Shown here piece by piece: positions 24,947 through 45,970 of a DNA stretch of 64,000 nt. How positions within the stretch are numbered: position 1 is the first letter of the stretch; every line of letters starts with the position of its first letter. The position numbers and the translations under genes were made by a program. The notes under the pieces are model-generated. The model made no database searches, was not told where the DNA came from, and saw only the letters and a program-made list of their open reading frames with translations. The DNA comes from Candidatus Latescibacterota bacterium. Its GTDB lineage: Bacteria; Latescibacterota; UBA2968; GCA-2709665. The DNA lies in the NCBI GenBank assembly GCA_965248435.1, contig OZ252100.1, positions 4,480,001 to 4,544,000 on the forward strand, read 5' to 3'.

Positions 24947-25516
<570 letters not shown>

Positions 25517-26271: not shown

Positions 26272-26299
26272 TTGACATTCACCCTTTTGGGTATATCAT
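26272..26299 (+). promoter_or_regulatory. Sigma70-type promoter for the sensor kinase
   Basis: TTGACA-16-TATCAT. Confidence 0.55.
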
Positions 26300-26354
26300 T
26301 CCGGAAGATACGGATTTTCGCTGACCCAAATTCTGAGCCAAGGCCTCGACTGCC

Positions 26355-28116: not shown

Positions 28117-28120
28117 TATT

Positions 28121-30350: not shown

Positions 30351-30571
30351 AAGTGGACCAAAGAGGAGATCTGATCGAACAAGCCGTGCAGGACATTATG
30401 ATGGGCCGGTTTAATGTTGTGGAGCTAATCAAAATGTACGGGGACGAAGTGGGGCTTAAGCTGGCCAATATTTTGTCAGCATTTAGGTTCGGAATGCTTC
30501 CCAGCGCGCGAGTTTCCGATCTGATTCACGAGAATATCGTGTCCTTCAGTAGAGAGGTCTCCCGTGTCTGA
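30347..30571 (+). CDS. Small hypothetical protein
   Basis: GTG overlaps the upstream stop, RBS AAGGAGG upstream, coupled to the next gene. Confidence 0.45.
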   Translation: MKVDQRGDLIEQAVQDIMMGRFNVVELIKMYGDEVGLKLANILSAFRFGMLPSARVSDLIHENIVSFSREVSRV

Positions 30572-31643
30572 CAGCTTGCTCGTCGTCGTCACGTTTATTC
30601 TTCTGTCTTTCATCCCGTTGTTTCCCCTCGGCCACTATTTTCGGAAGAGGCGGAGGCATCAAAAAAATGCTACACGGAAGTACGGAGTTATTCAGCGACT
30701 CGGGGAAGAAAAGGGATTGAATCAGACGGAGCTGGGGGCGGCTCAGCGCATGGCAAGAGCAGCTAGGATCCCGGCTACTACAAAGCTACTGAGGTCGGTC
30801 CGCGTCTTTGATCGGGGGATGGCGTCCTGGATGTCAAGAGTCCAGCAAATGTCCTGGCTCGAGATCGATAGGGAGGTAGAGGTGCTTAGGGCACTCAGAG
30901 AAAAGCTGGGGTTTCGCTACCTGCCTCCCGAGGAGCCGCCATCCTCGACCCGGGAACTTGAACTGGATCAAAGCCTCTACTTCCTTGCCCGAGGGAACAA
31001 GGGGCTTCGGGTGCTGTCTGCCCCTGTTGTCGACCTGGACGACTTGGCCATTCGGACTGAGGCTTTCAGGGAGGGTGGCCGCCCCGTTCGTTTCCCGAAG
31101 GGACACGAAATGTGGCTCTTCTTCTGGCCAGAATCCGGCGGCGAATGTCGGTTCAAATCGAAAGTCCTGAAAGAGGTGGCACGGCCGATGCCATATCTGG
31201 TGCTCAATCACGGAGACGGGGTGATAATCAATAGGGCCAAGGAATTCTTTACCTGCGATTTGGACGTAGAGTTGATTGCGGAGCGAGTGCCGGCCTCGAA
31301 AGTCGGTGGGGTCCAACCTTCCCAGATCCTTTTCCAGAAAGGACAACATATAGAATCGCTGCCTGTGAGACTCATTCAACTCAGCGGCAGCGGGTTCGTC
31401 GTTTCCAAGGATGCAGGCGTCGGATTAGGGGACATCATCCGGCTTAGCTGTAACGTTGAATCGATGTCGTTTTTGGACGAGTTGGTTGGAATCGCCGAGA
31501 AGGAGGTCGGCTCTGGCGTCAGGTTTCGATTTGTGAAACTGGCGACGGGGGAGAGAGAAGAGATACTTGACTATATCACACCGCGAGTAAAGGCCACGAC
31601 CACTTCAAGAGGTCGTATGGCCCGATTGGCCCCTGACCGCTGA
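30564..31643 (+). CDS. Membrane-anchored YcgR/PilZ-like protein with degenerate motifs
   Basis: N-terminal TM; CRFKSKVL..PYLVLNH (YcgR-N-like); LSGSG and GVRFRF..L...ERE.I..YI PilZ-like tail. Confidence 0.5.
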   Translation: MSDSLLVVVTFILLSFIPLFPLGHYFRKRRRHQKNATRKYGVIQRLGEEKGLNQTELGAAQRMARAARIPATTKLLRSVRVFDRGMASWMSRVQQMSWLEIDREVEVLRALREKLGFRYLPPEEPPSSTRELELDQSLYFLARGNKGLRVLSAPVVDLDDLAIRTEAFREGGRPVRFPKGHEMWLFFWPESGGECRFKSKVLKEVARPMPYLVLNHGDGVIINRAKEFFTCDLDVELIAERVPASKVGGVQPSQILFQKGQHIESLPVRLIQLSGSGFVVSKDAGVGLGDIIRLSCNVESMSFLDELVGIAEKEVGSGVRFRFVKLATGEREEILDYITPRVKATTTSRGRMARLAPDR

Positions 31644-31905: not shown

Positions 31906-31920
31906 TGGCATAGACATTGC
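31906..31920 (+). promoter_or_regulatory. Sigma54 promoter 2 (porin-yceI-nxr operon)
   Basis: TGGCAT-agaca-TTGC. Confidence 0.85.
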
Positions 31921-32118
31921 GTAAAAAAGTAAGTGTGGCTGATTTACGACCAACCAATCAGAAAGTCCTATTAATACAGTTCGAGCGAAAGGGGGTTGGC
32001 GCGGATGATAGCGGTGTCTGAGGCAGGTCGCTCAGTCTTGAGAAATCCTTTTGACTCGATGGCCTGCCTGTCGAAGAAAAACCTGGCCTTCAAAGGAGGC
32101 CAAGAAGGAGGTGCCACC

Positions 32119-33465
32119 ATGAAACTCTCAAATGTAGACCATGCGAAGGCCTCAGCTGCCAGCGATCCAGGCTCGCAGATTAGGGGGCACGCCGCTCGTT
32201 GGGTCCGTCAGTTCAAAGTCGGGGTGGTTATGATGTTGATTCTCGGTCTGGGATGGTCAGGGACGCAAGCCTGGGCCCAAACCCATAATTATAAATCGGA
32301 TAAAGGCATCAAGATTTCAGAATTCGACGGAATGAAACTTTACATGGATTTAAAGACCGTCGGAAGGTTCCAGTCGTTGGACCACGAAGGGGTATTTGTT
32401 GGTGGGAAAGAAACGCTGGGACTCCCGTCCGGATTTCAGACGGCCTGGGGAAATCTGGGGTTTCTGGCGGATTATGACGGTAAGGTCGAGGTCTTCTTCG
32501 AACTCTACCTGAGCAGCCGGCCACATCCCGAAAAGGTTTATGGACACGAGGGCTATCTGCTGATCCGTGGTATACCGGAGAACCTCACCACCGGACCTGT
32601 TGCGTCCCTGTTCAATGCGGTTGATTTCAAGGCGGGTCACTTCGAGATCGATTATGGAGATCACCGCTACCGGCGATCGGACAATGCGCGGGTGCAGAAA
32701 AACCCATTGATCGGAAACTACATCATAGATCCGAAGACGGTAGAAATCGGGGTAGAAGTGGCCACGGAACCCAACCGTTTCAATCTTCTGATGGGTGTTG
32801 GGAGTGGAGGTACCACAGAGAAATTCAAGAAGGGAACAGGCCTAAGTTTTCACGGCAAGCTCTGGGGTGATATTACTAAGTCCCTTAGGGCTTCAGGGTC
32901 CTTTTACCGCGTGGATCACTCCGGAAACAAGGTCCAATTTACTGGGAGCTGGAGCAATCTCTTTTCCGGACACCGGAGTGGAGGGCCCTATAGCGGTGTT
33001 CTCGCTGGTGGAAACGCTCCTGGGCAGGTGATGCCCGGTGCTGGACAGAAGGTCACCGCAACCCAGTTTGATGTGACGTGGGGTGTGGGTTCGTTGGAGC
33101 TCTACAGCCATTACGGGTGGATGCGAGACGCTGACATCAACGGCTCGGATTCCGGGTCACCCGAGGAAAGCTGGGCATACTACGCGGCAGAATCCACTTA
33201 CCGTATTACGTCGAACCTCCATGCCGCCATCCGTTATAGCGGGGCCGACGCGAACAAACTCAACGGGATTTCCTCCAAAGGCCGCATTGAGCGGATTCAG
33301 ATTGGCGGCGGATTCTGGCTGACGGAAAACATGCTTGCCAAAGTGGAATATGTGCATCAGAGATGCAACAATTTCACGGACTCAGACGGCAAGGTCGGCG
33401 GCGTAGATATCTGGATGGATCCTGTTTTTAGCGGCGCGATCTCGGAGGTATCCTTCGCCTTCTAG
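32119..33465 (+). CDS. Outer-membrane beta-barrel (porin-like) protein
   Basis: Signal peptide (AWA/Q), amphipathic strands, C-terminal Phe; YLSSRPH, FEIDYGD..RRSDNA..NP.IGNY motifs; RBS AAGGAGG. Confidence 0.7.
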   Translation: MKLSNVDHAKASAASDPGSQIRGHAARWVRQFKVGVVMMLILGLGWSGTQAWAQTHNYKSDKGIKISEFDGMKLYMDLKTVGRFQSLDHEGVFVGGKETLGLPSGFQTAWGNLGFLADYDGKVEVFFELYLSSRPHPEKVYGHEGYLLIRGIPENLTTGPVASLFNAVDFKAGHFEIDYGDHRYRRSDNARVQKNPLIGNYIIDPKTVEIGVEVATEPNRFNLLMGVGSGGTTEKFKKGTGLSFHGKLWGDITKSLRASGSFYRVDHSGNKVQFTGSWSNLFSGHRSGGPYSGVLAGGNAPGQVMPGAGQKVTATQFDVTWGVGSLELYSHYGWMRDADINGSDSGSPEESWAYYAAESTYRITSNLHAAIRYSGADANKLNGISSKGRIERIQIGGGFWLTENMLAKVEYVHQRCNNFTDSDGKVGGVDIWMDPVFSGAISEVSFAF

Positions 33466-33576
33466 ATCTCCTTGGTCTGCGGAGTCTGTGCAGAGTTGCT
33501 GGATGCCGCAGACCACATTCGGATAGGTCTTTTCAAACCGCCTTGACGATGATGAGAAGGGCGTCATCAAAAGGAG

Positions 33577-34275
33577 ATGATCGTGATGAAAAGACACAAT
33601 GTCGAGATGGTCGGCGTATTCATTCTGCTTCTTACCCATTCCTTACAGGCACAAACCTGGATCAGGTTTGAAGGGGTACCGGAAGAAAGCAGGGTCACGA
33701 TTGAGGGGACGTCTACTCTACACGACTGGACCGTCGAAAGCGAGAGCATCAAGGGGTTCTTGGAAATCCAGAAGGATGCTGATGACGACGCACTGTGGAA
33801 AGGGGAATCTGGACCAATGCGTGTGAAGATGCGCGCTAATGTTCACGTAGAGATCGTGGTCCGTTCCCTGAAAAGCGGCAAAGGGGACATGGACAAGAAG
33901 ATGTACAAAGCCTTGAAAGATAGCGAACATCCCAAAATCGAATACCGTCTAACCGAGGCGATATGCAAGGGGAGCAAGAAGATACGAGATGCCCGATTGT
34001 CATCAGTTGAGTTTGACACCAGGGGTGAATTGACAGTGGCGGGAGTAACTCTGCCGATCGAGATGGCCGTGATAGTAGACCGTATAGGCAAAGATCAATT
34101 GATAACCAAGGGGGAGACTTTTCTGAAGATGAAGGACTTCAAGATTAAACCACCCAAGGCCATGCTGGGCATGATCCGAACAGGTAATGACATCAAAATA
34201 TCCTTTGAATGGATGACGAAGTTGCCCGTGGAAACCACACAAACGGTAGGAATATCTCAGTCGGGAGACGCATAA
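33577..34275 (+). CDS. YceI-family lipid/polyisoprenoid-binding protein
   Basis: S.VTIEGTSTLHDW, SLKSG..MD..MYKALK...P.I.Y, G.LTVAGVT, M.DF.I.PP. Confidence 0.9.
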   Translation: MIVMKRHNVEMVGVFILLLTHSLQAQTWIRFEGVPEESRVTIEGTSTLHDWTVESESIKGFLEIQKDADDDALWKGESGPMRVKMRANVHVEIVVRSLKSGKGDMDKKMYKALKDSEHPKIEYRLTEAICKGSKKIRDARLSSVEFDTRGELTVAGVTLPIEMAVIVDRIGKDQLITKGETFLKMKDFKIKPPKAMLGMIRTGNDIKISFEWMTKLPVETTQTVGISQSGDA

Positions 34276-34276
34276 A

Positions 34277-34966
34277 GTGAGAAATCCCAAACGCGTTCTG
34301 GAAGGGTTCATCATCCTGCTGGCATCTTTCCCTCTGCTGGCAATGGCATCTGAGCAAAACCTATTTGTGATTGGGTCCGATAGTGAGATGCATCTGCAAG
34401 GGCGCGCGACGCTTCGCAAATGGCGATTCGAAAGTCACGAGGTGACGGGATTTGTAAAACTCGAAGCGACTCCTGAGGATCTCAAGCTGATGATTCAAAG
34501 TGTTGAAACGGCTCTCCGAAGCGGGGTGGAAGTAATCTTGCAAGACTTGGGCCTACAGATGTGCAACTCTCCTCGGGCCTTAGTGACCGTTCCAGTGGGG
34601 TCTCTTGCGAACCGAAGTTCTGCAATGACACGAGATATGTACAAAGCCCTGAAGAAGGAGCAATTTCCAGTTATAAAGTACACATTTTCCAGATTGATAG
34701 ACGTCAGGGTGATACCGGGTGCCGATACGTCCATCACTCGTCTTAGTCTGACTACGGAGGGTGTTCTGGAGATCGCCGGGGTCCGAAAGTTCATAGAGAT
34801 GGATGTTCTGGTCGAACACGATAAGAACCGATTCAAAGTATTTGGTGAGAAACGTGTGAAGATGACTGATTTTGGAATTGATCCGCCATCACAATTCTTC
34901 GGTCTGATCCGTGTGCGCGACGAGGTGGATGTGATCTTTGACCTGGTCGTGGGGACGGATTCTTAA
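34277..34966 (+). CDS. YceI-family protein (second copy)
   Basis: MTRDMYKALK..FP.I.Y, G.LEIAGV, MTDFGIDPP..FFGLI.V. Confidence 0.85.
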   Translation: MRNPKRVLEGFIILLASFPLLAMASEQNLFVIGSDSEMHLQGRATLRKWRFESHEVTGFVKLEATPEDLKLMIQSVETALRSGVEVILQDLGLQMCNSPRALVTVPVGSLANRSSAMTRDMYKALKKEQFPVIKYTFSRLIDVRVIPGADTSITRLSLTTEGVLEIAGVRKFIEMDVLVEHDKNRFKVFGEKRVKMTDFGIDPPSQFFGLIRVRDEVDVIFDLVVGTDS

Positions 34967-34975
34967 TGAAGTTGC

Positions 34976-36634
34976 ATGATGTTCCAGTGGAGGAGGGAGT
35001 CTCCAATGAGATGTGCAGTGCGTACCAGACCCGCAGGAGGAAAGTTACTTCTTTATAGCGGCATCTTACTTGGTCTGTCCCTGCTTTGTGTACAGACCTC
35101 CACCGGGGAGGGACGTTCTCTACAGCCTTCAAAGGATCTGAAAGCCTCTACTCGAGCCGTAGAATTGGGCAAGGCCACTTACCAGAGACAATGCGCTGCC
35201 TGTCACGGGCTGGAGGGGCGGGGTGACGGCGAAGCGGCCTTCCTGCTCTATCCCAAGCCCCGGGACTTCGTCGCGGCTCGCTACCGTCTCGTCTCGACGT
35301 GGGAGCGTGTGCCGACGGATGAGGACCTCTTCACCACCATCTCCCGCGGGATGCCAGGGTCGGCAATGCCGTCCTGGGCCCACCTGCCCGAGGAGACCCG
35401 ATGGGGGCTGGTTCACTATGTGAAATCTCTTGCCGAGAAGTCCTGGGCAGTGAAGCCGGCGACCGAACCAAAAGAGGAAGGTGCGTCGGGGACCGGTGTC
35501 ATCGCTGTTCCGCCCGAGACTGCTTACACGGCGGAGACGAAGAAGCAGGCCGCCTACTTTTTCAAGGAGGCCTGTGCGGGGTGCCACGGGCTGGAAGGTC
35601 GGGGCGACGGTGTGCAGCGCCAGGTGGACAGTGAAGGGTATGAAACGCGGCCGAGGGATCTGACGCGCGGGATCTACAAGGGTATCCCGGACCCGGAGGC
35701 GGTTTACCGCAGGATTGTCGCGGGGCTGCCCGGTACGCCGATGCCGATGAGCGACTGGGCCTACGGGAAAGATGCCTGGGACCTCGTCCACTACGTAATG
35801 AATATGTCCAGTGATCGGGAGCGCTCACGCAACGAAATGTTCAAGTTTGAAATCCACGCCGCGAGGGTGGCCAAACTCCCGGACCATCCCGATTCGTGGA
35901 TCTGGAATCGCGCCACGCCGGTCAACCTCCATCTGATGCCGCTCTGGTGGCGGGACGACCGGACCGAGGAGGTGACGGTGCGCGCACTGCACGACGGCAG
36001 GGAACTGGCCCTGCTCCTGGTCTGGCGGGATGAGACGCACGACCATACGACCATCCGCCCGCAGGACTTCAGAGACGCCGCTGCCGTGCAGTTCTCCCTG
36101 GATTCGGATCCACCCTTTTTCGCGATGGGGGAGCGGGGGAAGTTCGTGAACATCTGGATGTGGAAGTCTGAGCGGCAGGCGGACCTGCAGCCGGCGTATC
36201 AGGACCTGGAGAAGGTCTATCCGAATATCGGGATCGATTCCTACCCCAACTTCCAGAGGTCGCCCCTGGAACAGCCGATGCGACACGCGCTGACGCTGGA
36301 ATCGGATTCGACCTACGTGACGGGATGGGGGGCGGGAAACATCGTTTCGGACCCGACGTGGAAGCGAGCCGCGGAGGACCTCCGGGCCCAGGGCTTCGGC
36401 ACCCTGAAGGCCCGACCTCGGTTCGACCAGGCCGTGGAGGCCGATGGGGTCTACCGCGCGAACGCCTACAGGGTGGTTTTCCGCCGTGCGTTCAAACCGA
36501 AGGGGAAGGGGGCGGCGGCGCTGAAGAAGGGGACGACAGTGCCGGTGGCCTTTGCGGTTTGGGACGGGAGCGCGGGGGACCGGGACGGGAAGAAGTCGGT
36601 GACGATCTGGCAGGATTTGAAGATTTCGCCCTGA
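34976..36634 (+). CDS. Diheme cytochrome c fused to an ethylbenzene-dehydrogenase-gamma-type heme b domain (candidate NxrC/gamma subunit)
   Basis: CAACH and CAGCH with GxxMP distal ligands; FRDAAAVQF, FAMG, VAFAVWDG...RDGKK. Confidence 0.88.
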   Translation: MMFQWRRESPMRCAVRTRPAGGKLLLYSGILLGLSLLCVQTSTGEGRSLQPSKDLKASTRAVELGKATYQRQCAACHGLEGRGDGEAAFLLYPKPRDFVAARYRLVSTWERVPTDEDLFTTISRGMPGSAMPSWAHLPEETRWGLVHYVKSLAEKSWAVKPATEPKEEGASGTGVIAVPPETAYTAETKKQAAYFFKEACAGCHGLEGRGDGVQRQVDSEGYETRPRDLTRGIYKGIPDPEAVYRRIVAGLPGTPMPMSDWAYGKDAWDLVHYVMNMSSDRERSRNEMFKFEIHAARVAKLPDHPDSWIWNRATPVNLHLMPLWWRDDRTEEVTVRALHDGRELALLLVWRDETHDHTTIRPQDFRDAAAVQFSLDSDPPFFAMGERGKFVNIWMWKSERQADLQPAYQDLEKVYPNIGIDSYPNFQRSPLEQPMRHALTLESDSTYVTGWGAGNIVSDPTWKRAAEDLRAQGFGTLKARPRFDQAVEADGVYRANAYRVVFRRAFKPKGKGAAALKKGTTVPVAFAVWDGSAGDRDGKKSVTIWQDLKISP

Positions 36635-36646
36635 GGAGACAGTGCC

Positions 36647-39600
36647 ATGGCTGATGATGCGAAGCTGGAATCGGGCGGCGTTCCAAGGCGTGAGTTCCTG
36701 CGCTGGCTGGGTCTCGGCACCGGTTCGGCCGTGATGGGCGTGGGCGTGCCGTTCAGGCTGCTGGCCGCCGCCCGTCCCGACGAAAATCCACTCGCCGGTT
36801 CCATCGACCGGGGCTGGGAAGGGATCTACCGCGATCAATACCGCTACGACCGACACTTCGACTGGGTCTGTTCGCCCAACGACACCCACGCCTGCAGGGC
36901 CCGGGCCTACGTGCGGAACGGCATCGTGACCCGACTGGGGTCCACCTACGACTATCAGGACTATGCTGATCTCTACGGCAACAAGGCCACGTCGAACTGG
37001 AACCCCAGGCAGTGCGCAAAAGGCTACACCTTTCATCGTGTGCTCTACGGGCCCTACCGGCTGCGGCACCCGATCGTGCGCAGGGGCTGGAAGGCTTGGG
37101 CCGATGCCGGGTTTCCTGATCTGACGCCTGAGCTCCGGTCGAAGTACAAGTTCGACAGCCGGGGAGAGGACGAGTTTGTTCAGATCTCCTGGGATGACGT
37201 ATCCCACGACATCGCAAAGGCGCTGGTATCAATCTCTACGCGATACAGCGGGGAGGAGGGCAAACGGCGTCTGCTGGAACAGGGCTACCAGCCCGAGATG
37301 GTGGACGCCATGCACGGGGCGGGCACACGGAGCATCAAGATGCGGGGGGGGATGGGGCTTCTGGGGGTCATCGGGAAGTACGGGATGTATCGGCTGAACA
37401 ACTCGCTGTCTCTGCTCGACTCCAGGATCCGGGGCGTGTCGCCGGACAAGGCCCTCGGGGGTCGCAACTGGTCCAACTACACGTGGCACGGAGACCAGGC
37501 CCCGGGACACCCCTGGGTGCACGGGTTGCAGACGTCTGACTGCGACTTCAACGATCTTCGCTTCTCGAAGCTGATCATCATGGATGGAAAGAACCTGGTG
37601 GAGAACAAGCTGCCTGATTCCCACTGGTTCATCGAGTGCATGGAGCGGGGGGCGAAGATCGTCGTGATTGCCCCGGAGTACGGGCCGCCTTCCACCAAGG
37701 CCGACTACTGGATCCCGATTCGTCCGGCCACGGACACGGCGCTCTGGCTGGGCATTACGAAGCTGATGATCGACCGGAAGTGGTATGACGAAGCGTTCGT
37801 GAAAGGGTTCACCGACTTTCCCCTGCTTGTGCGAACGGATACACTCAAACGCCTGAGGGCCCACGAGGTCTTCCCCGATTACAAATCGACCCTTTCGCCC
37901 GACGGGCCTTCCGTGAAGATCCAGGGCCTCAAGCCGGAACAGCACGAAAAGCTGGGGGATTATGTGATCTGGGACGAAGGCCAGGACGGTCCACGGGCCA
38001 TCACGCGAGACGAAGTCGGAAAGCGCATGGCTGAGAACGGACATCGTCCGGCGCTTTCAGGAAAGTTCAAGGTCCGGCTGGTAAACGGCGAGGAGGTCGA
38101 GGTCGGGACGCTGTGGACGCTATATCAGACGCACTTGAAAGACTACGATCTGGATACCGTGGTCGACATCACCCACACCCCGAAAGAGCTGGTGGTACAG
38201 CTTGCGAAGGACATCGCAACGATGAAACCGGTGGCCATCCACCAGGGAGAGGGGATCAATCACTGGTTCCACGCCACGGAGATGAACCGATCGGCCTACC
38301 TGCCGTTGATGCTGACCGGGAACATCGGGAAGCCGGGCGCGGGAGGCCACACTTGGGCAGGCAATTACAAGGCCGCGCTCTTCCAGGGGTCGCCCTGGAC
38401 GGGGCCCGGATTCAAGGGGTGGATCGGCGAGGATCCGTTCGAGCCGAACCTGAATCCGGATGCCCCCGGGAAAGAGGTTCCGGTGCGCCTGACCTGCAAG
38501 GATGAGGAACCGGCCTACTGGAATCACGGGGATCAGGCCCTGATCGTGGACACGCCAAAGTTCGGGCGGAAGAACTTCACCGGCAACACCCACATGCCCA
38601 CGCCGACGAAGGCCATCATCTTTAACAATGTGAACCTGATCAACAATGCCAAGTGGGCCTACGGGATGATCAAGAACGTAAACCCGAACATCGAGATGAT
38701 CGTCTCGATGGACATCCAGATGACGGCCTCGATCGAATACGCCGATATCGCCCTGCCGGCCAACTCGTGGCTCGAGTTCGAGGGACTGGAAGTCACAGCC
38801 TCCTGCTCCAACCCCTTCCTCCAGATCTGGAAGGGCGGCATCCCCCCGGTCTTCGACAGCAAGGACGACCTGAGGATCCTTGCGAACATTGCCAAGGCCC
38901 TGGGTTCAGTGACCGGCGACCGGCGCTTCATCGACTATTTCAAGTTCGAGCATCAGGGAAAGCGTGACATCTATCTGCAGCGCCTCCTCGACACCTGCAC
39001 GACCACGCGGGGATACAAACTCAGCGACATCATGACGGGCAAATTCGGGCCGCCGGGCGGCTGCTTGATGAACTTCCGAACCTACCCGCGCATCCCGTTC
39101 TACGAGCAGGTACACGACGACGAGCCCTTTCACACCGACACGGGACGGATGCACGCCTACTCCGACGTGCCAGAGGCCATCGAGTACGGAGAGAACTTCA
39201 TCGTCCACCGGGAAGGCCCGGAGGCCACGCCCTACCTGCCGAACGTGATCGTGAGTTCCAACCCCTACATCCGGCCGGAGGATTACGGCATCCCGCAGGA
39301 CGCGGAGCACTGGGACGATCGCACGATCCGAAACGTGATGCTCCCCTGGTCCAAGGTGAAGAAGACGAAGAACTTCCTATGGGAGAAAGGGTTCCAGTTC
39401 TACTGCCTGACACCGAAGACGCGCCACCGGGTGCACAGCGGCTGGTCGAACGTGGACTGGCACATGCTCTACGATTCGAACTTCGGTGACCCCTATCGGC
39501 TGGACAAGCGGGCGCCCTCAGTGGGCGAACACCAGCTCCACATCAACCCTCAGGCGGCGCGGGATCTCGAGATCAACGACGGAGATTACGTCTACCTGGA

Positions 39601-40117
39601 CGCAAACCCGGCGGACCGGCCCTACCTCGGGGCGAAGCCTGACGATCCCTTCTACCGTGTGGCGCGGTGCATGCTGCGGGTCAAGTACAACCATGCCTAC
39701 CCCTACAACATCGTGATGATGAAACACGCGCCCTATATCGCTACGGAGAAGAGCGTAAAGGCACACGAAACCCGGCCGGACGGCCGGGCGCTTTCTGCGA
39801 ATACGGGTTACCAGGCCAACCTTCGCTACGGGTCCCAGCAATCGGTCACGCGTAACTGGCATATGCCGATGCATCAGACCGACAGCCTTTTCCACAAGGC
39901 GAAGGTGTATATGAGTTTCATCTTCGGGGGCGAGGCGGATAACCACGCCATCAACACGGTGCCGAAGGAGACGCTTGTCCGCGTCACGAAAGCGGAGGAT
40001 GGAGGAATGGGGGGTGCGGGTATCTGGGCGCCGGCGACCACCGGACGTACCCCTGACAATGAGAATGAATTCACCAAGCGCTACCTGGTCGGCGAGCTGG
40101 TGCAGGTCAGGTCGTAG
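36647..40117 (+). CDS. nxrA: Tat-exported Mo-bisPGD oxidoreductase alpha subunit, Nitrospira/anammox-type NxrA-like
   Basis: Tat signal RREFL; FS0 motif CSPNDTHAC...C; WSNYTWHGDQAPG (Asp Mo ligand); WAGNYKA; NTVPKETLV. Confidence 0.92.
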   Translation: MADDAKLESGGVPRREFLRWLGLGTGSAVMGVGVPFRLLAAARPDENPLAGSIDRGWEGIYRDQYRYDRHFDWVCSPNDTHACRARAYVRNGIVTRLGSTYDYQDYADLYGNKATSNWNPRQCAKGYTFHRVLYGPYRLRHPIVRRGWKAWADAGFPDLTPELRSKYKFDSRGEDEFVQISWDDVSHDIAKALVSISTRYSGEEGKRRLLEQGYQPEMVDAMHGAGTRSIKMRGGMGLLGVIGKYGMYRLNNSLSLLDSRIRGVSPDKALGGRNWSNYTWHGDQAPGHPWVHGLQTSDCDFNDLRFSKLIIMDGKNLVENKLPDSHWFIECMERGAKIVVIAPEYGPPSTKADYWIPIRPATDTALWLGITKLMIDRKWYDEAFVKGFTDFPLLVRTDTLKRLRAHEVFPDYKSTLSPDGPSVKIQGLKPEQHEKLGDYVIWDEGQDGPRAITRDEVGKRMAENGHRPALSGKFKVRLVNGEEVEVGTLWTLYQTHLKDYDLDTVVDITHTPKELVVQLAKDIATMKPVAIHQGEGINHWFHATEMNRSAYLPLMLTGNIGKPGAGGHTWAGNYKAALFQGSPWTGPGFKGWIGEDPFEPNLNPDAPGKEVPVRLTCKDEEPAYWNHGDQALIVDTPKFGRKNFTGNTHMPTPTKAIIFNNVNLINNAKWAYGMIKNVNPNIEMIVSMDIQMTASIEYADIALPANSWLEFEGLEVTASCSNPFLQIWKGGIPPVFDSKDDLRILANIAKALGSVTGDRRFIDYFKFEHQGKRDIYLQRLLDTCTTTRGYKLSDIMTGKFGPPGGCLMNFRTYPRIPFYEQVHDDEPFHTDTGRMHAYSDVPEAIEYGENFIVHREGPEATPYLPNVIVSSNPYIRPEDYGIPQDAEHWDDRTIRNVMLPWSKVKKTKNFLWEKGFQFYCLTPKTRHRVHSGWSNVDWHMLYDSNFGDPYRLDKRAPSVGEHQLHINPQAARDLEINDGDYVYLDANPADRPYLGAKPDDPFYRVARCMLRVKYNHAYPYNIVMMKHAPYIATEKSVKAHETRPDGRALSANTGYQANLRYGSQQSVTRNWHMPMHQTDSLFHKAKVYMSFIFGGEADNHAINTVPKETLVRVTKAEDGGMGGAGIWAPATTGRTPDNENEFTKRYLVGELVQVRS

Positions 40118-40142
40118 AAGACTTCGTCTGAAGGAGCCGAAA

Positions 40143-40469
40143 ATGCCTTACGATGAACCCGATGTCACCGACCCGATGATGGGTGTGGGCGTTGTGTTGC
40201 CGGGCGGCGAGGAAGCCACGCGGGACATGGCTTACGTCTTTGCTGAGGAGTTCGCCAGGCTGGGCCATTCCGAAGAAAAGATCCTGCGTCTGTTCCAGAC
40301 ACCCTTTTACCGGGCCGCACACGGCGCCTATTCCGCACTGGGCGAGGCTGTCATCCTACGGATCGTCCGGGAATGTGTCGGCGTCTGGGGACGCGTGCGG
40401 TTCGTGGATCTGGATGCGGAAAGAGAAGCAGAGGGGCTCATTCAAGTGGAACCGTGCAGGACCGAATAG
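40143..40469 (+). CDS. Conserved-looking hypothetical protein between alpha and beta subunits
   Basis: RBS AAGGAG plus ATG; FAEEFARLG..ILRLF..PFY. Confidence 0.7.
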   Translation: MPYDEPDVTDPMMGVGVVLPGGEEATRDMAYVFAEEFARLGHSEEKILRLFQTPFYRAAHGAYSALGEAVILRIVRECVGVWGRVRFVDLDAEREAEGLIQVEPCRTE

Positions 40470-40508
40470 GGATCTCGAATCGAAACTGGCCACGAGGAGG
40501 GGAGTGCG

Positions 40509-41777
40509 ATGGCACAGGTCTACAACTGGAACCTCGGACGCAAGATGGCCTATCCGTACGAGGCCGCATATCCGAAGGAGCAGTTCGCCTTCGTGTTCAA
40601 CATCAACCGGTGTATCGCCTGCCAGACCTGCACCATGGCGTGCAAGTCGACCTGGACTTTCAACAAGGGGCAGGAACACATGTGGTGGGCGAACGTTGAG
40701 ACGAAGCCCTACGGGGGCTACCCTCAGTTCTGGGACATGAAGACCCTGCAACTGCTGGAGGAAGGTAACCCGGACGGGCAGGTCTGGGACGGGTTGACTT
40801 CAGACGACCCGAAGCGGCCCTACGGTCAATTCGAGGGCCAGACGGTCTTCGAGGCGGGAAAAAAGACGCTGAAGCCCGACAGCTCGCGCGTGCTCGGCTA
40901 TCTGCCCACGGACGAGGAGTGGAACTCTCCGAATATCTATGAGGACAACCCGGTGGGCAAAAAGGGGGTGCGGGGCGAGTTCTATCCGGACGGGGTGGAG
41001 CTGCCGGTGCACAAGACCTGGTTTTTCTACCTGGCGCGCATCTGCAATCACTGCAGCTATCCGGCCTGCTTGGCGGCCTGCCCCCGAAAGGCGATCTACA
41101 AGCGCCCCGAGGACGGGATCGTCCTGGTGGACCAGAAGGAGTGCCGGGGCTACCGGAAGTGTGTCGAGGCCTGTCCCTATAAGAAGGTGATGTATCGGGG
41201 CAATACCCGGATTTCCGAAAAGTGCATCGCCTGCTATCCCCGAGTCGAGGGTAAGGACCCGGAGACCGGAGGGGAGCCGATGGAGACGCGGTGCATGGCG
41301 GCCTGTATCGGTCAGATGCGGATGCAGGGGCTCGTGAAGATGGATCCCGAAGGGACCTGGACCCGAGATCGGCAGCATCCGCTCTATTATATGGTTCACG
41401 TCGCCAAGGTGGCCCTGCCGCTCTACCCTCAGTTCGGAACGGAGCCCAACGGCTACTACATCCCACCCCGATGGGTACGTCGCGATTACTTGCGGCAGAT
41501 GTTCGGGCCGGGCGTGGACCGGGCGATCGAGGCCTATTCCCACCCAGACCGGGAGCTCCTGGCCGTGTTGCAGCTCTTCCGGCGCTCCAACCGGATCATC
41601 TACCGGTATGAGATCGAGGAGGGCCCGTTGATCTACGAAGCGGAGCTGCGAGGACGGCCGATCACTATTTACAACGACACTGTGATCGCGTTCGGTAAGG
41701 GGGGGAAAGAGATCTTCCGGACGACGGTGGAGGAGCCCATCTACGAGCGGCCCTCCGAGCACGCGAATTCGATATAA
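40509..41777 (+). CDS. nxrB: Fe-S beta subunit, NxrB-like
   Basis: CIACQTCTMAC, CNHCSYPACLAACP, CRGYRKCVEACPY, CIAC; LPLYPQFGTEPN. Confidence 0.93.
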   Translation: MAQVYNWNLGRKMAYPYEAAYPKEQFAFVFNINRCIACQTCTMACKSTWTFNKGQEHMWWANVETKPYGGYPQFWDMKTLQLLEEGNPDGQVWDGLTSDDPKRPYGQFEGQTVFEAGKKTLKPDSSRVLGYLPTDEEWNSPNIYEDNPVGKKGVRGEFYPDGVELPVHKTWFFYLARICNHCSYPACLAACPRKAIYKRPEDGIVLVDQKECRGYRKCVEACPYKKVMYRGNTRISEKCIACYPRVEGKDPETGGEPMETRCMAACIGQMRMQGLVKMDPEGTWTRDRQHPLYYMVHVAKVALPLYPQFGTEPNGYYIPPRWVRRDYLRQMFGPGVDRAIEAYSHPDRELLAVLQLFRRSNRIIYRYEIEEGPLIYEAELRGRPITIYNDTVIAFGKGGKEIFRTTVEEPIYERPSEHANSI

Positions 41778-41789
41778 GCGGAGAGAGAG

Positions 41790-42557
41790 ATGACCGAACT
41801 GAGAATCGAAGCGGAGGAACTCGCCCTGTGCCGGGCGACCCTGTACGAGGCGCTGGCGCTGGGGTTTCGCCCCCCTACGGAGGAAACGCTGGCTCGTCTG
41901 GTGGCCGTGGAGGGGGTGAGCGCACTCGCCGATGCAGCCGCGCCGCTGGACCCCGATCTGGCTGAAACGGTCAGGAGCCTGGCCAAGGCGAATCGGACGG
42001 ACGGCACGTCGGTCCTGTCCGGGCTCTACCGAACCCTCTTCGGGCATACTGCAAGGGGCGCCGTGCCGCCTTACGAGACGGAGTACGGCGTGGATGGACT
42101 GTTCCAGCAGCCCCAGGAGATGAGCGACATCGGCGGGTTTTTCGGTGCCTTCGGTCTTGCGGTGGATCCATCGAGTCACGAACGGATCGACCACATCAGC
42201 TGCGAGTGTGAATTCCTCCGTTTTCTTTGCGAGAAGGAGGTCTACGCCGCGGAGGCGGGGGATGAGGACATGCTGGAGGAAACCCGCAAGGCGGAGCGGC
42301 TCTTCCTGAAGGATCACCTGGGTCGGCTCGCGCCCGCCTTCGGACGGCGGCTGGTGCTCGAAGACCGAGGCGGCTTCTACGGTGCGCTGGGCGAATTGTG
42401 TGCCGGCTTTATCGAGGCCGAATGCCGGCGCGCCGGTGTTTCGGCCGGACCGGAACAGCTTCAGCTTCGACCGGCCCTGCCCGACGACGTGCCCATGGCG
42501 TGCGATTCGGGTGAAGACCTCCTGCAGATCGACGGGGAGTCGGAGGAGGTTGGATGA
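41790..42557 (+). CDS. TorD/DmsD-family Mo-enzyme maturation chaperone
   Basis: PPYETEY, ERIDHISCECEF, FLKDHL. Confidence 0.9.
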   Translation: MTELRIEAEELALCRATLYEALALGFRPPTEETLARLVAVEGVSALADAAAPLDPDLAETVRSLAKANRTDGTSVLSGLYRTLFGHTARGAVPPYETEYGVDGLFQQPQEMSDIGGFFGAFGLAVDPSSHERIDHISCECEFLRFLCEKEVYAAEAGDEDMLEETRKAERLFLKDHLGRLAPAFGRRLVLEDRGGFYGALGELCAGFIEAECRRAGVSAGPEQLQLRPALPDDVPMACDSGEDLLQIDGESEEVG

Positions 42558-43516
42558 GAAGAGATCCCGAGGGATTTCGGCTGAACTTCGACCACCGCCT
42601 CGTGGAAGAATCGGTGTTGCTCGCCATCCCGGGCCGGGCCGATGAGGGCCGATTCCGAAGCGTGCGAGATCGGATTTACGACGAGCCTGACCTCGACGCG
42701 CGGGATGTGGCCTTCCAGAAGCTCCACGCCGAGTGGTTTGTGTTTCTCGGCCTGGGGGATCCCCTGGAGCAGGCTCTGGATGAGCGCTCCCTGTTGAAAG
42801 CCGCGACCCGTCAATGCGTCGTGGCCCCTGCACGGTCGAAGAAGGAGGAGGGAGCAGATCTTTTCGTGTCTCCACCCTTAGAGGGTAGGGATGAGGTGGA
42901 CAGGCGGTCGATCGGCTGCCGACTGAAGACCGAGTCGTTCCTGGAGCCTGACGCCCTGCTTGCAGTGCTTCGTCACGAGTTTCTACACATCTTCGACATG
43001 CTCGATCCGGCGTTCGACTACGAGCCGGAACTGCCCCAGTCGGAGGGAGGGGCCATGGCCAAGCGCCTCCTTCAGGATCGCTATCGGGTGCTTTGGGGTG
43101 TGACGATCGACGGACGTCTCGTGAGGGAAGGTCGGGCATTGGCCGGAGTGCGTGGACGCAGAGAACACGAATTTTTCCGGACCTTTCATTTTCTAGGCGC
43201 GAACACCCAAGACGCCTTCAGCAGGTTCTTCGACCACCCCTTCCGCACCCACGGCGAACTGGTCGCCTTTGCGCAAGCTCCCCATTTGGCCTTTGGCGAC
43301 TCATCCCGTCCTGATATGCGCTGTCCTTTATGCGGTTTCCCCACGCACGCCTTTGAGCCGAACCCACAACGGATCCCTGCCGAGGTGCTTACCCGGATCG
43401 CGAGTGATTTTCCGACCTGGCGCCCTGCGCAGGGACTCTGCCCGCAGTGTGCCGATCTCTATCGGGCCTCCCCGCTCTCCAGCGCGGCAGAGGCCGTCCT
43501 TCCGAAGATTTCATGA
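42554..43516 (+). CDS. Hypothetical protein with HExxH motif and C-terminal CxxC...CxxC zinc ribbon
   Basis: LRHEFLH; CPLC and CPQC; start overlaps the chaperone stop. Confidence 0.7.
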   Translation: MRRDPEGFRLNFDHRLVEESVLLAIPGRADEGRFRSVRDRIYDEPDLDARDVAFQKLHAEWFVFLGLGDPLEQALDERSLLKAATRQCVVAPARSKKEEGADLFVSPPLEGRDEVDRRSIGCRLKTESFLEPDALLAVLRHEFLHIFDMLDPAFDYEPELPQSEGGAMAKRLLQDRYRVLWGVTIDGRLVREGRALAGVRGRREHEFFRTFHFLGANTQDAFSRFFDHPFRTHGELVAFAQAPHLAFGDSSRPDMRCPLCGFPTHAFEPNPQRIPAEVLTRIASDFPTWRPAQGLCPQCADLYRASPLSSAAEAVLPKIS

Positions 43517-43940
43517 GTTCTATGACCTCCCGAGAACGAATTCAGAGGGTGTTGGCAGCGAGGTGCCCGACCGTGTGCCGTTTCACGACGCCTACTGGGC
43601 GACGACGATCGAGCGGTGGCGTCGCGAAGGCATGCCGCCAGACAGATCTCCTGAAGAATACTTCGGGAGTGAAATCGTGCAGATCGCGGGCGACTATTCG
43701 CTGCAAGTTCCATTTCAGATGATCGAGGAGACGGATCGATATCGCGTCGGGAATATCGATGTTCGAAACCTGGCTGGAAGCCGTGAGGCGATCGAATCGG
43801 AGATCCGGTCGAAGGTGACCGCGGGGGGAGCTGGGGGCGGATACATCTATCATTCAGATCACTCCGTCCCCAAAGATGTGTCGTTGGAGAACTATCGATT
43901 CGCGCTGAAGATGCTCGAGAAGTACGGGCGTTACGATTGA
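43513..43940 (+). pseudogene. Uroporphyrinogen-decarboxylase-family (MtaA/CmuA-like) remnant with frameshift and large internal deletion
   Basis: MTSRERI..(shift)..EVPDRVP N-terminus joined directly to the GNID...GGGYIYHSDHSVP C-terminus; ~140 aa against ~350 expected. Confidence 0.75.
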
Positions 43941-43957
43941 GGCGTGAGGAGGACCGT

Positions 43958-44599
43958 ATGGACGACGTCGAGCGCTGTACTTGCGCAGACGAGGGCCCGC
44001 CCGTTATCGCGGTCACAGGCTACCGGGACAGCGGAAAGACGACCGCTATCGAGGCGATCGTAAAGGCGTGTTCTCTCCGGGGCACCCGTGTAGGGGTCTT
44101 CAAGCATTGCTGCCACGGCTACGATCTGGACCAACCCGGGAAGGACTCCTGGCGTATCCATCAGGCAGGCGCGGCCGGGACCGTCGTGATGGGCCCCAAG
44201 GGATTCGCGTTCCTCGGGGGATCCTGCCCTGACCAGGATCCACGGCGACTTGCGTCCTGGCTGTTCCCGAACGTGGACTTGATCCTTGCCGAGGGGTTTC
44301 ACTGGATCGGCCTTCCCCGGATCGAGATTGGAGATCGCGATGGAAGGACCCGCCCGGGGCATCCGGAAGGGGAGGTGCTGGGCCGTCTGCCTTTTAAGTT
44401 CGGTTCGAGGGAGATCCGGGCGGTCTGCGATCTGCTCGAGGCGAGATACGTGGAGGGGCGACGTGAACGAGAGGTCGCCCGAAGGGCGATTCTATCCTCA
44501 GCTCAAACTTCGTCGGATATCCGTCGAGGGGACATCTTCGGCAGGAGGACGACTCCCCACGCGATTACTCCGATCAGCCAGAACGCTGCTCCGATGTGA
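43958..44599 (+). CDS. mobB: Molybdopterin-guanine dinucleotide biosynthesis protein B
   Basis: GYRDSGKTT, KH..H..D.DQPGKDSW, DLILAEGF. Confidence 0.9.
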   Translation: MDDVERCTCADEGPPVIAVTGYRDSGKTTAIEAIVKACSLRGTRVGVFKHCCHGYDLDQPGKDSWRIHQAGAAGTVVMGPKGFAFLGGSCPDQDPRRLASWLFPNVDLILAEGFHWIGLPRIEIGDRDGRTRPGHPEGEVLGRLPFKFGSREIRAVCDLLEARYVEGRREREVARRAILSSAQTSSDIRRGDIFGRRTTPHAITPISQNAAPM

Positions 44600-45666
44600 A
44601 GCATCCCGAAATAGTAGAAGGGCAGGAAGTCGGAGATCACGCGGGCGATGAGGGCCAGGAGCGTACAGAGCGCGAGCGTGAGCATGGTTTTCGAGTTCTT
44701 CTGCCAGATCGCTTCGAATCCGCAGTGAGCCGCAGTGACACGTGTCGCGATGATGACGGTCAGCGTCGCGAACCCCCCGATGAAGGTCAGGTGGAGGGCC
44801 GGGATTTCGTAATCTGGAAAAAGGCCCGCCACCCAGAGGCCTGCGATTACAAACCAGAAGGAGAGCCAGAGAAGGCGCAGGTGCCAGAGCGGACTGGCGG
44901 GTCGCTGGAATAAAGGGAGTGTGCGCAGCAGGTGGACGGTGACGACAAAGGCCCGCAGGCTTCTACCCGCGGACTCTAAAACCCCCGACTCGATCCAGAA
45001 GCTGACGAACAGTGCGAGTGCCAAGAGCAGGTTGATGCCGAGGGGTGTGTGTCTGTGGCGTGACGCGGCGTCGTTCGCACTAAGCAGACGCCCGCCGAGG
45101 TAGGGGCCGACCCCCATGATGAAGCAGAGAAGCATGCCCTGTTCCACCATGCGGTTTCCAAGCTTGACAAATCCATACAAGGGCCACAGGATGAGCAGGC
45201 CCCCGACCAGGGCGTGGATCAGGCCGGCCGGGACGAAGATGAATGTCGGGGGAGGATCGTGCTTTCGTTCGGGGAATCGACGGGCGGCAAAGAGGAGCAG
45301 GTGGAGCGCTAGAAGAAGGAAGCCGACTTCAGACATGCTCCAGTTCTCCACGTATAGCTCAGCCGCAGCGAACAGGAGCAGGGCCAGACCCAGGAGGAGC
45401 TCCCACGGACGGGCACGTCGAACTTCCATGAATCTGGGTAGGGCCGTCATCAGAAACCCGGTTGCGAACCCCATCTCAAACCCTTGGATCATCAGGAGGC
45501 CGTGGTAGTTGCAAGAGAAGGTCTCGGTTAGGCCCGAATAGTACCACAGCCAGTGCGATACACCGACAACGCCGCAGAGCAAGCCGGCAGGGAAAAAAAG
45601 CCGAAAGGGTTCATCACAGAGGACCTCCAGAAAGGGGGTCCTTTTCTCGTTCGAATGGGTGACCAA
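44503..45666 (-). CDS. nnrS: NnrS-family membrane protein (start approximate)
   Basis: EPFRLFF, HGLLMIQGF..GFLMTALP, LHLTFIGG; many TM helices. Confidence 0.85.
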   Translation of the reverse strand: MVTHSNEKRTPFLEVLCDEPFRLFFPAGLLCGVVGVSHWLWYYSGLTETFSCNYHGLLMIQGFEMGFATGFLMTALPRFMEVRRARPWELLLGLALLLFAAAELYVENWSMSEVGFLLLALHLLLFAARRFPERKHDPPPTFIFVPAGLIHALVGGLLILWPLYGFVKLGNRMVEQGMLLCFIMGVGPYLGGRLLSANDAASRHRHTPLGINLLLALALFVSFWIESGVLESAGRSLRAFVVTVHLLRTLPLFQRPASPLWHLRLLWLSFWFVIAGLWVAGLFPDYEIPALHLTFIGGFATLTVIIATRVTAAHCGFEAIWQKNSKTMLTLALCTLLALIARVISDFLPFYYFGMLHIGAAFWLIGVIAWGVVLLPKMSPRRISDEV

Positions 45667-45823
45667 GTGCGCTCCGAATGGCGAGGGATTTGAAGGTGCT
45701 GATGTGTCAAGATAACCGTTCCGGCGGTCCGCGGACAAGCGTTTGGGCCGACCAGCGGGTGGACAGACGACTGGGATTTGCCACAGGCAAATCAACCCGT
45801 TCCCTGGAAAGGGAGATTAGACC

Positions 45824-45955: not shown

Positions 45956-45970
45956 TGGCACGTCATTTGT
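45956..45970 (+). promoter_or_regulatory. Sigma54 promoter 3
   Basis: TGGCAC-gtcat-TTGT (one mismatch at -12), preceded by an AT-rich tract. Confidence 0.65.

Follow-up and report, generated by a model that had tools for sequence, protein, structure and literature searches.

Nearly all natural nitrate is thought to be made by the nitrite oxidoreductases (NXR) of a few nitrifier lineages and of anammox bacteria. The Nitrospira and Nitrospina hosts of such enzymes are chemolithoautotrophs with a reductive tricarboxylic acid cycle and specialised oxidases. Here we analysed an NXR-type operon at positions 34976-43516 of a 64,000-nucleotide stretch of a Candidatus Latescibacterota genome (contig OZ252100.1, positions 4,480,001 to 4,544,000 of the forward strand; the whole stretch is referred to as the window). 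The closest characterised enzyme is the NXR-ABC complex of Kuenenia stuttgartiensis (kustd1700/1703/1704, PDB 7B04). As described by Chicano et al. (2021, PMC8387239), its alpha subunit uses Asp275 as molybdenum ligand and Asn70 as substrate-binding residue, its unusual FS0 cluster is held by three Cys (including Cys67) and Asp71, and the haem b of NxrC is bound by Met155 and Lys305. The NXR of Nitrospira and Nitrospina share with the window enzyme a periplasmic location, an alpha subunit exported by the twin-arginine translocation (Tat) route and membership of the same clade, as taken from published trees and not from a direct sequence comparison (PMC10470456, PMC10732223), whereas their gamma subunit is described as probably membrane-anchored (PMC8387239).

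The window locus is an intact operon encoding a periplasmic NXR-type molybdenum enzyme, and consists of six genes on the same strand with short gaps or none between them:

34976-36634, + strand: gamma subunit of 552 amino acids (aa), with two Pfam Cytochrom_C domains and an EB_dh domain
36647-40117, + strand: catalytic alpha subunit of 1156 aa for molybdenum bis(pyranopterin guanine dinucleotide) (Mo-bisPGD), with a Pfam Molybdopterin domain and a twin-arginine signal
40143-40469, + strand: gene X, 108 aa, in the gap between alpha and beta, assigned to no family
40509-41777, + strand: Fe-S beta subunit of 422 aa, with a Pfam Fer4_11 domain
41790-42557, + strand: TorD/NarJ-family assembly chaperone of 255 aa (Pfam Nitrate_red_del, E 1.3e-18)
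42554-43516, + strand: gene Y, 320 aa, assigned to no Pfam family

An earlier reading made from the letters of the DNA (the sequence-only reading) had named an alpha and a beta subunit, a TorD chaperone and a dihaem-c/haem-b gamma subunit, all of which were found on the + strand where it had placed them, together with the alpha motifs CSPNDTHAC and WHGDQAPG and the Tat motif RREFLRWLG. Its parts list had overlooked gene X at 40143-40469.

In a search of all PDB chains, the alpha subunit (self-score 2794 bits) matched Kuenenia NxrA (7b04_B) with 1789.5 bits over residues 13-1154, and its next matches were perchlorate reductase (4ydd_A, 191.7 bits), EbdA (2ivf_A, 165.5 bits) and E. coli NarG (114.7 bits). 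The beta subunit scored 604 bits against Kuenenia NxrB (7b04_A), compared with 191 for EbdB and 169.5 for NarH. Within the gamma subunit, residues 61-279 matched the Kuenenia dihaem cytochrome 6h5l_B (135 bits) and residues 333-548 matched both NxrC (7b04_C, 89 bits) and Pfam EB_dh (E 6.2e-25), downstream of an N-terminal hydrophobic signal or anchor. Alignment revealed CSPNDTHAC and NYTWHGDQAPGHP to be identical between the window alpha and the Kuenenia chain, the Mo-ligand Asp, the substrate Asn and the Cys-x3-Asp FS0 motif being the Kuenenia residues (with roles as given in PMC8387239), and the Met (AMGERG) and Lys (DGKKS) of gamma aligned with Met155 and Lys305 of 7b04_C. Inspection by eye placed PRREFLRWLG at alpha residues 13-22 and found beta to start with MAQVYNW without a hydrophobic leader, and this presence of a twin-arginine signal on alpha and its absence from beta is the predicted pattern of a Tat-exported periplasmic NXR.

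These data indicate that alpha, beta and gamma together form a full NXR-type complex of the periplasm, of the kind found in anammox bacteria and Nitrospira, within the type II dimethyl sulfoxide (DMSO) reductase family, a proposal of the sequence-only reading that is borne out by the scores to the 7b04 chains and by the conserved ligands. A grouping of alpha with the non-nitrogen type II enzymes, which that reading had named as the outcome that would speak against it, is refuted because the bit scores (1789.5 for NxrA against at most 192 for the others) and the identical active-site and haem ligands favour the Kuenenia NXR. The placement of alpha in the NXR clade is based on this PDB comparison and on published trees, our own trees being built from sequences of metagenome-assembled genomes (MAGs) only. 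Action of the enzyme on a different oxyanion, such as chlorate, perchlorate or selenate, appears very improbable to us, as does the idea of a recently acquired operon that is carried along unused. Relatives of alpha in the type II DMSO reductase family, including some of its PDB matches, do reduce perchlorate or act on compounds such as ethylbenzene, but the similarity to NXR is about nine times that to perchlorate reductase 4ydd, and the substrate Asn and Mo-ligand Asp are as in NXR.

The best NCBIfam models for the four recognisable proteins were the type II DMSO reductase alpha, beta, gamma and chaperone subfamilies, all of them scoring under the curated cut-offs (alpha, TIGR03479, 338.9 versus 984.75; beta, TIGR03478, 251.8 versus 480.7; gamma, TIGR03477, 121.4 versus 169.85; chaperone, TIGR03482, 84 versus 152 bits). 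The TIGR03479, TIGR03478 and TIGR03477 models do not cover the NXR clade. An identity as NarGHI was rejected given scores of 148.3 for narG (cut-off 1084) and 175.3 for narH (cut-off 524), the lack of NarI and the presence of a Tat signal. NarGHI and the window enzyme do have their superfamily, cofactor set and chaperone type in common, but the window alpha carries the Tat signal and has Asp instead of His at FS0, and the window system has no NarI and no need of NarK.

Both the Kuenenia and the window enzyme correspond to a soluble, non-cytoplasmic alpha-beta-gamma complex, the window copy being known from its genes. The small open reading frame (ORF) between alpha and beta may be shared as well, as the kustd numbering leaves room for two such genes (kustd1701/1702). 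Unlike Kuenenia, however, the window host has no anammoxosome, and the window operon was not seen to include a gene for NXR-T, the subunit that forms tubules. The window gamma moreover has a dihaem cytochrome c fused to it, whereas the cytochromes of Kuenenia are encoded by separate genes. Finally, the host is a heterotroph without signs of anammox or nitrifier metabolism, hydrazine synthase not having been searched for.

We then sought relatives of alpha in one genome per prokaryote species, and compared gene order in the best 80 of the 595 places at which they occurred. These 595 places were spread over more than 10 phyla, and the best 80 (72-85% identical) stemmed from MAGs labelled as Binatia, Methylomirabilota/Rokubacteria, Acidobacteriota, Latescibacterota, Gemmatimonadota, Hydrogenedentota, Planctomycetota, Omnitrophota, Neomarinimicrobiota, Eiseniibacteriota and others. 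A collection of 5.8 billion proteins yielded 2196 clusters at E 1e-50 among 8000 candidates scored. The best 120 of these alpha clusters were all 80-84% identical and, where named, were called 'nitrate oxidoreductase subunit alpha', 'molybdopterin-dependent oxidoreductase' or 'nitrate reductase alpha subunit'. Using tblastn, the order gamma, alpha, X, beta, chaperone, Y was found to be constant across the 80 loci, with gamma recovered in 71, beta in 73 and the chaperone in 64 of them, and with most misses falling in loci that end early.

The window cassette is therefore one more copy of a known and widespread six-gene cassette, and the novelty that the sequence-only reading had seen in the complex did not hold, given the 595 places, the more than 2000 protein clusters and the existing literature. 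That literature has considered the cassette as a potential new marker for nitrifiers, and also as a nitrate reductase (PMC9562985, PMC10732223, PMC9012183). Suarez et al. (2023) report it from Planctomycetota MAGs and regard its direction as not assignable (PMC10732223), while Li et al. (2022) read copies in KSB1 (clade I MAGs), together with nrfA, as dissimilatory nitrate reduction obtained by gene transfer (PMC9012183). With the cassettes of these uncultured phyla (Rokubacteria/Methylomirabilota, Binatia, Acidobacteriota, KSB1, Hydrogenedentota, Planctomycetota and Omnitrophota) the window copy shares its gene order, an alpha that is 72-85% identical and a position inside their well-supported clade. 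It differs from them in its host phylum and in having neighbours of its own, namely a porin-like gene, two YceI genes, a sigma-54 two-component system and NnrS.

Gene X was present between alpha and beta in 76/80 related loci, as well as in G038, a genome of the same order as the host. An alignment of 47 X sequences displayed six invariant columns (D10, P11, G16, E36, G41 and G67). Its AlphaFold2 model is helical (predicted local distance difference test score, pLDDT, 80.3), and no match was obtained in Pfam, PDB or Foldseek (best Foldseek E 1.3). X is thus modelled as a conserved cytoplasmic helical protein. Gene Y was the sixth gene in 59 of the 80 loci, with the remaining 21 appearing to stop short of its position. 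It carries an [H/R]ExxH..D motif with little or no variation at E142, H145 and D148 but a variable first His, and a C-terminal CxxC...CxxC ribbon that is absent from some clades. The absence of a CxxCH motif rules Y out as a haem subunit. Sequence searches of Pfam and the PDB gave no match for Y, and its well-scored model (pLDDT 94.1) had only weak best fold matches (Foldseek E of at least 0.03; VIA Z 5-6.3 to M1 and other zincin domains, below the VIA Z guide value of 8). Y was consequently not called a peptidase, the likeness to zincins being too weak (Foldseek E of at least 0.03, VIA Z of at most 6.3). As no signal peptide was seen by eye on X or Y, one might speculate that both have a role in the cytoplasmic maturation of the Tat substrate. 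This would make them candidate NXR maturation factors, of relevance to anyone expressing NXR in another host.

The host genome counts 5,673,632 bases in two contigs, with 56.6% G+C, 97.5% completeness and 7.0% contamination. Its RpoB was 71% identical to that of a Latescibacterota-labelled MAG and 70% to that of a Gemmatimonas-labelled MAG, compared with 65-66% for Eiseniibacteriota and another Gemmatimonadota MAG and 57-61% for Bacteroidota, Marinimicrobia, Hydrogenedentota, Methylomirabilota and Acidobacteriota MAGs. These identities, and membership of the same class as Latescibacterota-labelled MAGs, identify the host as a member of the Latescibacterota, in agreement with its earlier assignment to the Fibrobacteres-Chlorobi-Bacteroidetes (FCB) group. 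The host is not a known nitrite oxidiser.

The CO2-fixation search covered three markers, and the host genome gave no matches to the RuBisCO large subunit (PF00016), ATP-citrate lyase (ACL, PF16114; a weak negative, as this model was silent in all control genomes as well) or the acetyl-CoA synthase marker AcsB (PF03598). By these markers, the host does not show the CO2 fixation of a chemolithoautotrophic nitrite oxidiser, and with several peptidases also seen, its description as apparently heterotrophic stands.

The molybdopterin family PF00384 was represented in the host by four proteins, namely FdhA, NuoG, a 711-aa enzyme and NxrA, and neither NarG nor NapA was found in the genome. NirK, NosZ and cytochrome bd were not found there either, and the cd1 NirS model yielded only a 27-bit propeller match. 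NrfA, on the other hand, was present (PF02335, 398 bits, 480 aa, five CxxCH motifs) and adjoined by NrfH, a NapC/NirT-type tetrahaem protein of 161 aa with four CxxCH motifs that matches Cytochrom_NNT; the nrfHA pair is located at C1:4922931-4924877 of the genome. As judged from these genes, the host has the NrfHA pair expected for the dissimilatory reduction of nitrate to ammonium (DNRA), and NXR plus NrfHA is its only recognisable nitrogen-oxide route.

Complex I is encoded as well. Since PF00115 yielded only two A-family cytochrome c oxidases, the host has no cbb3 oxidase and no nitric oxide reductase. The genes preceding one of the two oxidases form an alternative-complex-III-like set, and those preceding the other encode a Rieske/split cytochrome b complex and a multihaem cytochrome of 1012 aa. 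In accordance with the sequence-only reading, no NarI-, NrfD-, NapC- or NarK-family protein was detected in the window (Pfam and NCBIfam scans of the window ORFs picked as likely genes). Its claim that a quinol module is lacking holds for the window and not for the genome, which encodes alternative complex III, Rieske/cytochrome b and NrfH elsewhere.

The reading we favour, at about an even chance, is that in this host the enzyme serves as a cytochrome-c-linked periplasmic nitrate reductase feeding NrfA in DNRA. In such a scheme, alpha would hold Mo-bisPGD and FS0 (three Cys and one Asp) and beta the Fe-S chain. Both would probably be folded in the cytoplasm with the help of the TorD-type chaperone, MobB and perhaps X and Y, then be exported together in folded form by Tat, and dock in the periplasm on a gamma subunit exported by the Sec route. 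Gamma, in which a Met/Lys haem b of high potential is joined to a dihaem cytochrome c module, would couple the enzyme to the pool of cytochrome c and not to quinol. Electrons from organic substrates would flow via complex I to quinol, with energy conserved at complex I and at the quinol:cytochrome c step, and NrfHA would reduce the resulting nitrite to ammonium. Since NXR and NrfHA are both predicted to work in the periplasm, no NarK transporter would be needed.

A number of observations support this scheme. NXR is the sole candidate nitrate reductase in a 97.5% complete genome and stands beside a complete NrfHA, while alternative complex III and Rieske/cytochrome b are available to reduce cytochrome c. 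No RuBisCO, ACL or AcsB marker is present. Moreover, neither cbb3 nor bd oxidase was found, and therefore the host has no high-affinity oxidase and nitrate would be useful at low oxygen. A comparable set of parts (an NXR-clade enzyme, a complex III route and NrfAH) is found in the cultured heterotroph Thermogutta terrifontis, which is reported to respire nitrate with a deep-branching Nar, whose genes adjoin those of complex III, and with NrfAH (PMC5673643), and whose enzyme falls in the NXR clade of a published tree (PMC10732223). That enzyme, which we compared by description only, is however called a cytoplasmic Nar with NarI, and its NarGH and TorD genes lie next to complex III (PMC5673643), whereas the window operon is not adjacent to complex III. 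The Kuenenia enzyme (KsNXR) is furthermore described as working in both directions in vitro (PMC8387239).

The pairing with NrfA was examined in an order-level set of 41 genomes, consisting of the host (G000) and its 40 nearest relatives from the same genus, family and order. NXR-like alpha was found in 2/41, namely the host and G038, and NrfA in the same two, while NapA and NarG were found in none of the 41. The gamma, alpha and beta subunits of G038 were 53-63% identical to the window copies, and MobB and NnrS flank the module in both genomes. Both enzymes appear damaged in G038. Its alpha has a single frameshift near L103:11992-11994, where there is no homopolymer, and its nrfA (L104 7336-10207, within G038:C1:3150000-3167999) is split by an ISL3-family transposase gene (8533-9345). 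This might indicate a joint decay of NXR and NrfA in G038.

Other observations weigh against nitrate reduction. The alpha frameshift of G038 could be an assembly error, and the co-occurrence within the order amounts to two observations on relatives that are not independent. Among the 168 genomes of the phylum, 9 carried NXR-like alpha, 41 NrfA, 8 NapA and 5 NarG, and NrfA was found in 4/9 holders of NXR-like alpha as opposed to 37/159 of the others. Thirty-two of the 41 NrfA holders had no match to NXR-like alpha, NapA or NarG, and NrfA therefore needs no such partner. Three of the nine NXR holders also had NarG or NapA, suggesting that these are not simply replaced by the cassette, and across phyla only 7/50 other cassette-bearing genomes had NrfA. 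We accordingly rejected NrfA as a general partner of the cassette (7/50 across phyla; 4/9 versus 37/159 within the phylum), and likewise NXR as a general replacement of Nar or Nap (3/9). On contig C114 of G201, a Latescibacterota MAG, a canonical NarG (1522 bits) was observed at about 5 kb from an NXR cassette (24951-28559 and 33531-36959).

The host's two cytochrome c oxidases, which could take electrons from nitrite, equally tell against the nitrate reductase reading and bring up another one. In this serious but less probable alternative, the enzyme would be an aerobic nitrite oxidase. Electrons taken from periplasmic nitrite would travel over gamma's haem b and dihaem c into the cytochrome c pool and reach the aa3/caa3-type oxidases, either to supply a heterotroph with extra energy (lithoheterotrophy) or to remove toxic nitrite. 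It would fit the high-potential Met/Lys ligation of haem b and the retention of NarG or NapA in three of the nine holders within the phylum. The energy yield of nitrite oxidation is small, however, and would be so for a 5.7-Mb heterotroph. Nor does this alternative agree well with the absence of CO2-fixation markers (RuBisCO, ACL, AcsB) and of high-affinity oxidases (cbb3, bd), the single copy of the operon, the order-level co-occurrence with nrfHA (both damaged in G038) or the NnrS gene adjoining the operon. In its favour again, the closest characterised enzyme oxidises nitrite in vivo, with every catalytic residue, the active site and the FS0 ligands identical to those of the window alpha (PMC8387239), and an anammox nxr cluster contains a dihaem cytochrome c of +350 mV (PMC11791136), although the module in the window matched a different cytochrome, 6h5l_B. 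MAG papers term such hosts potential new nitrifiers (PMC9562985, PMC10732223), and transcripts called nxrAB are described as among the most highly transcribed genes of their genomes in oxic low-carbon floodplain soils, the lineages there being unchecked (PMC8141241).

The enzyme could also work both ways within the cell, reducing nitrate without oxygen and oxidising nitrite once oxygen returns, with the PAS/sigma-54 system setting only its amount. We regard this as unlikely, even though the in vitro bidirectionality of KsNXR (PMC8387239) would allow it, cytochrome c can be reached both from alternative complex III and Rieske/cytochrome b upstream and from the oxidases downstream, and PAS sensors adjoin the operon; by sequence it is indistinguishable from either one-way reading. 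A related and bolder proposal, which we hold to be doubtful, is that a heterotrophic member of the Latescibacterota oxidises nitrite aerobically through dihaem c and aa3/caa3 oxidase, and switches to NrfA-feeding nitrate reduction when oxygen is absent. If true, part of environmental nitrite oxidation would be done by non-autotrophs outside the known nitrifier phyla.

The sequence-only reading had stated that direction cannot be read from sequence, and indeed nothing in the sequence sets it. Of the two options it left, a nitrite oxidiser or mixotroph or else a novel nitrate-respiration system, the genome context leans towards nitrate reduction without being decisive, and the novelty falls away. 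The issue matters beyond this host, as the same cassette sits in hundreds of uncultured non-nitrifier species. Should these cassettes be nitrate reductases, metagenomic counts of 'nxr' put nitrification potential too high and DNRA too low; should they oxidise nitrite, there are more nitrifying organisms than are currently listed. The present copy is useful in having a nearly closed genome and a simple nitrogen gene set, with NXR as the only candidate nitrate reductase and NrfHA as the only nitrite reductase. Such a gene set, without a carbon-fixation marker or high-affinity oxidase, leads to the clean prediction that nitrate would be converted to ammonium by a cytochrome-c-linked periplasmic route. 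To what is in print, our analysis adds a phylum for the host, the context of a near-complete genome with a DNRA prediction, a regulator and accessory gene set common to two divergent copies in one order, and the possible joint decay of NXR and NrfA in G038.

Around the operon, the window contains the following features:

21714-25444, - strand: GlnE and PII genes, 71% and 86% identical, respectively, to those of the same-genus genome G001
26355-27122, + strand: PAS sensor (Pfam PAS)
27076-28116, + strand: PAS histidine kinase (Pfam PAS, HisKA, HATPase_c)
27908-29512, + strand: NtrC-type sigma-54-dependent response regulator (Pfam Response_reg, Sigma54_activat, HTH_8)
30564-31643, + strand: 359-aa protein with a weak PilZ/PilZNR signal (PilZNR E 5.9e-4, under the cut-off)
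31906-31920, + strand: sigma-54-type -24/-12 promoter-like site TGGCAT-N5-TTGC, one mismatch to consensus
31996-33465, + strand: candidate porin of 489 aa, outer-membrane beta-barrel-like, with C-terminus ...SFAF and an N-terminal hydrophobic stretch (by eye)
33577-34275, + strand: YceI-like periplasmic protein 1 (Pfam YceI, E 2.7e-12)
34277-34966, + strand: YceI-like periplasmic protein 2 (Pfam YceI, E 9.1e-9)
43937-44599, + strand: MobB, accessory to molybdopterin-guanine dinucleotide synthesis (TIGR00176, 94.7 bits versus a cut-off of 76.2)
44503-45795, - strand: NnrS-family haem-copper membrane protein (Pfam NnrS, E 2.1e-31)
48384-49643: alginate-export-type porin (Pfam/NCBIfam scans)
62001-62246, + strand: TatA-like ORF (MFGFGHWEILIIVLVLVLIFGARRIP...), 18.5 kb downstream of the operon

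The sequence-only reading had thus rightly placed mobB, nnrS and an alginate-export porin near the operon, while its tatA is in the window but, at 18.5 kb, not adjacent. The PAS proteins at 26355-28116 are probably the sensor half of a two-component system tied to the NXR module, and the adjacent sensor kinase and sigma-54 activator would probably control expression of the operon. A sigma-54 regulator presumably also lies beside nxr in Nitrospira defluvii. The neighbours shared with the G038 locus comprise a CBS protein (51% identical), the PAS sensor (56%), the sigma-54 activator (63%), the PilZ-like protein (46%), MobB (55%) and NnrS (47%). They are not regular companions of the cassette in the other 80 loci, which gave scattered weak matches only. 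For the sigma-54 activator these were weak 39-40% matches in L075 and L054, while MobB was found downstream of the cassette in 8/80 loci and NnrS in 2/80. The NnrS family has been linked to nitric oxide and nitrosative stress in denitrifiers.

The sigma-54-like site at 31906-31920 sits 76 nt upstream of the porin-like ORF, which is itself followed directly by the two YceI genes and the operon. A second one-mismatch site (45956-45970, + strand) was found in the intergenic region upstream of small ORFs that follow nnrS. Scanning of the whole window gave 52 such matches against 46.7 expected, which is not above chance, and it is on its position and the neighbouring activator that a promoter role of the 31906-31920 site would rest. 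Sigma-70 and terminator scans of the window likewise remained at chance level. The porin-like protein (31996-33465) has no Pfam family and no match beside the cassette in the 80 related loci, and is thus specific to this genome, where it might serve as a nitrate or nitrite porin. The YceI genes were not conserved beside the cassette in these loci either.

With respect to the origin of the copy, the G+C content at third codon positions (GC3) of alpha (0.82) and beta (0.83) lay at the 99th percentile of 2495 long host ORFs (mean 0.667, sd 0.08). Gamma and the chaperone were near the 90th percentile, and the upstream porin-like and YceI genes on the low side. The high GC3 of alpha and beta would fit the recent import of an unused passenger, which we deemed very improbable above, but the six genes are intact and the operon shares a dedicated regulator set with G038. 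The high GC3 could instead reflect codon bias caused by strong expression.

Trees were built with FastTree (83 rows) and IQ-TREE (36 of 84 extracted rows), and an approximately unbiased (AU) test used 26 of the 84 rows. From the 83-row tree L108 was omitted, and the L033 row in it, with a branch length of 6.4, came from a frame extracted in error and was ignored. In both trees the window alpha took an unresolved position at the base of a well-supported MAG clade, and copies from the Latescibacterota genus g28 grouped with Hydrogenedentota (support 97-98), apart from the window alpha. Forcing the window alpha and the g28 copies together was 40.8 log-likelihood units worse (AU p 0.036, for a group named after the tree had been seen), which is modest evidence against such a clade. 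The copy with the highest alpha identity (85-87%) is a fragmented one from G130, which belongs to the same class. We infer from these trees that the cassette has spread horizontally, with at least two entries into the phylum, and that this Latescibacterota lineage would have acquired it as a mobile module. A MAG titled 'Gemmatimonas phototrophica' (L006 / G204 = G045) groups in genus g28 with two Latescibacterota MAGs and falls into the class of the host, and its title is probably a mislabel.

An attempt to delimit an island by synteny with G001 failed, as GlnE and PII are the sole window genes syntenic with that genome and both flanks are rearranged. The window also contains a PorV gene of the type IX secretion system (T9SS). 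Elsewhere in the host genome, the other molybdopterin enzymes and the multihaem cytochrome mentioned above are located as follows:

G000:C1:2027867-2029138, - strand: NAD-linked FdhA with one in-frame TGA, probably encoding selenocysteine, adjoined by NuoE/F-like genes and FdhD
L094 12361-15399 (G000:C1:1860000-1877999), - strand: 1012-aa multihaem cytochrome c, between the Rieske/split cytochrome b complex and an A-family oxidase operon
L095 7008-9143 (G000:C1:2566000-2581999), - strand: 711-aa cytoplasmic Mo/W-bisPGD enzyme, matching acetylene hydratase best among solved structures (220 bits)

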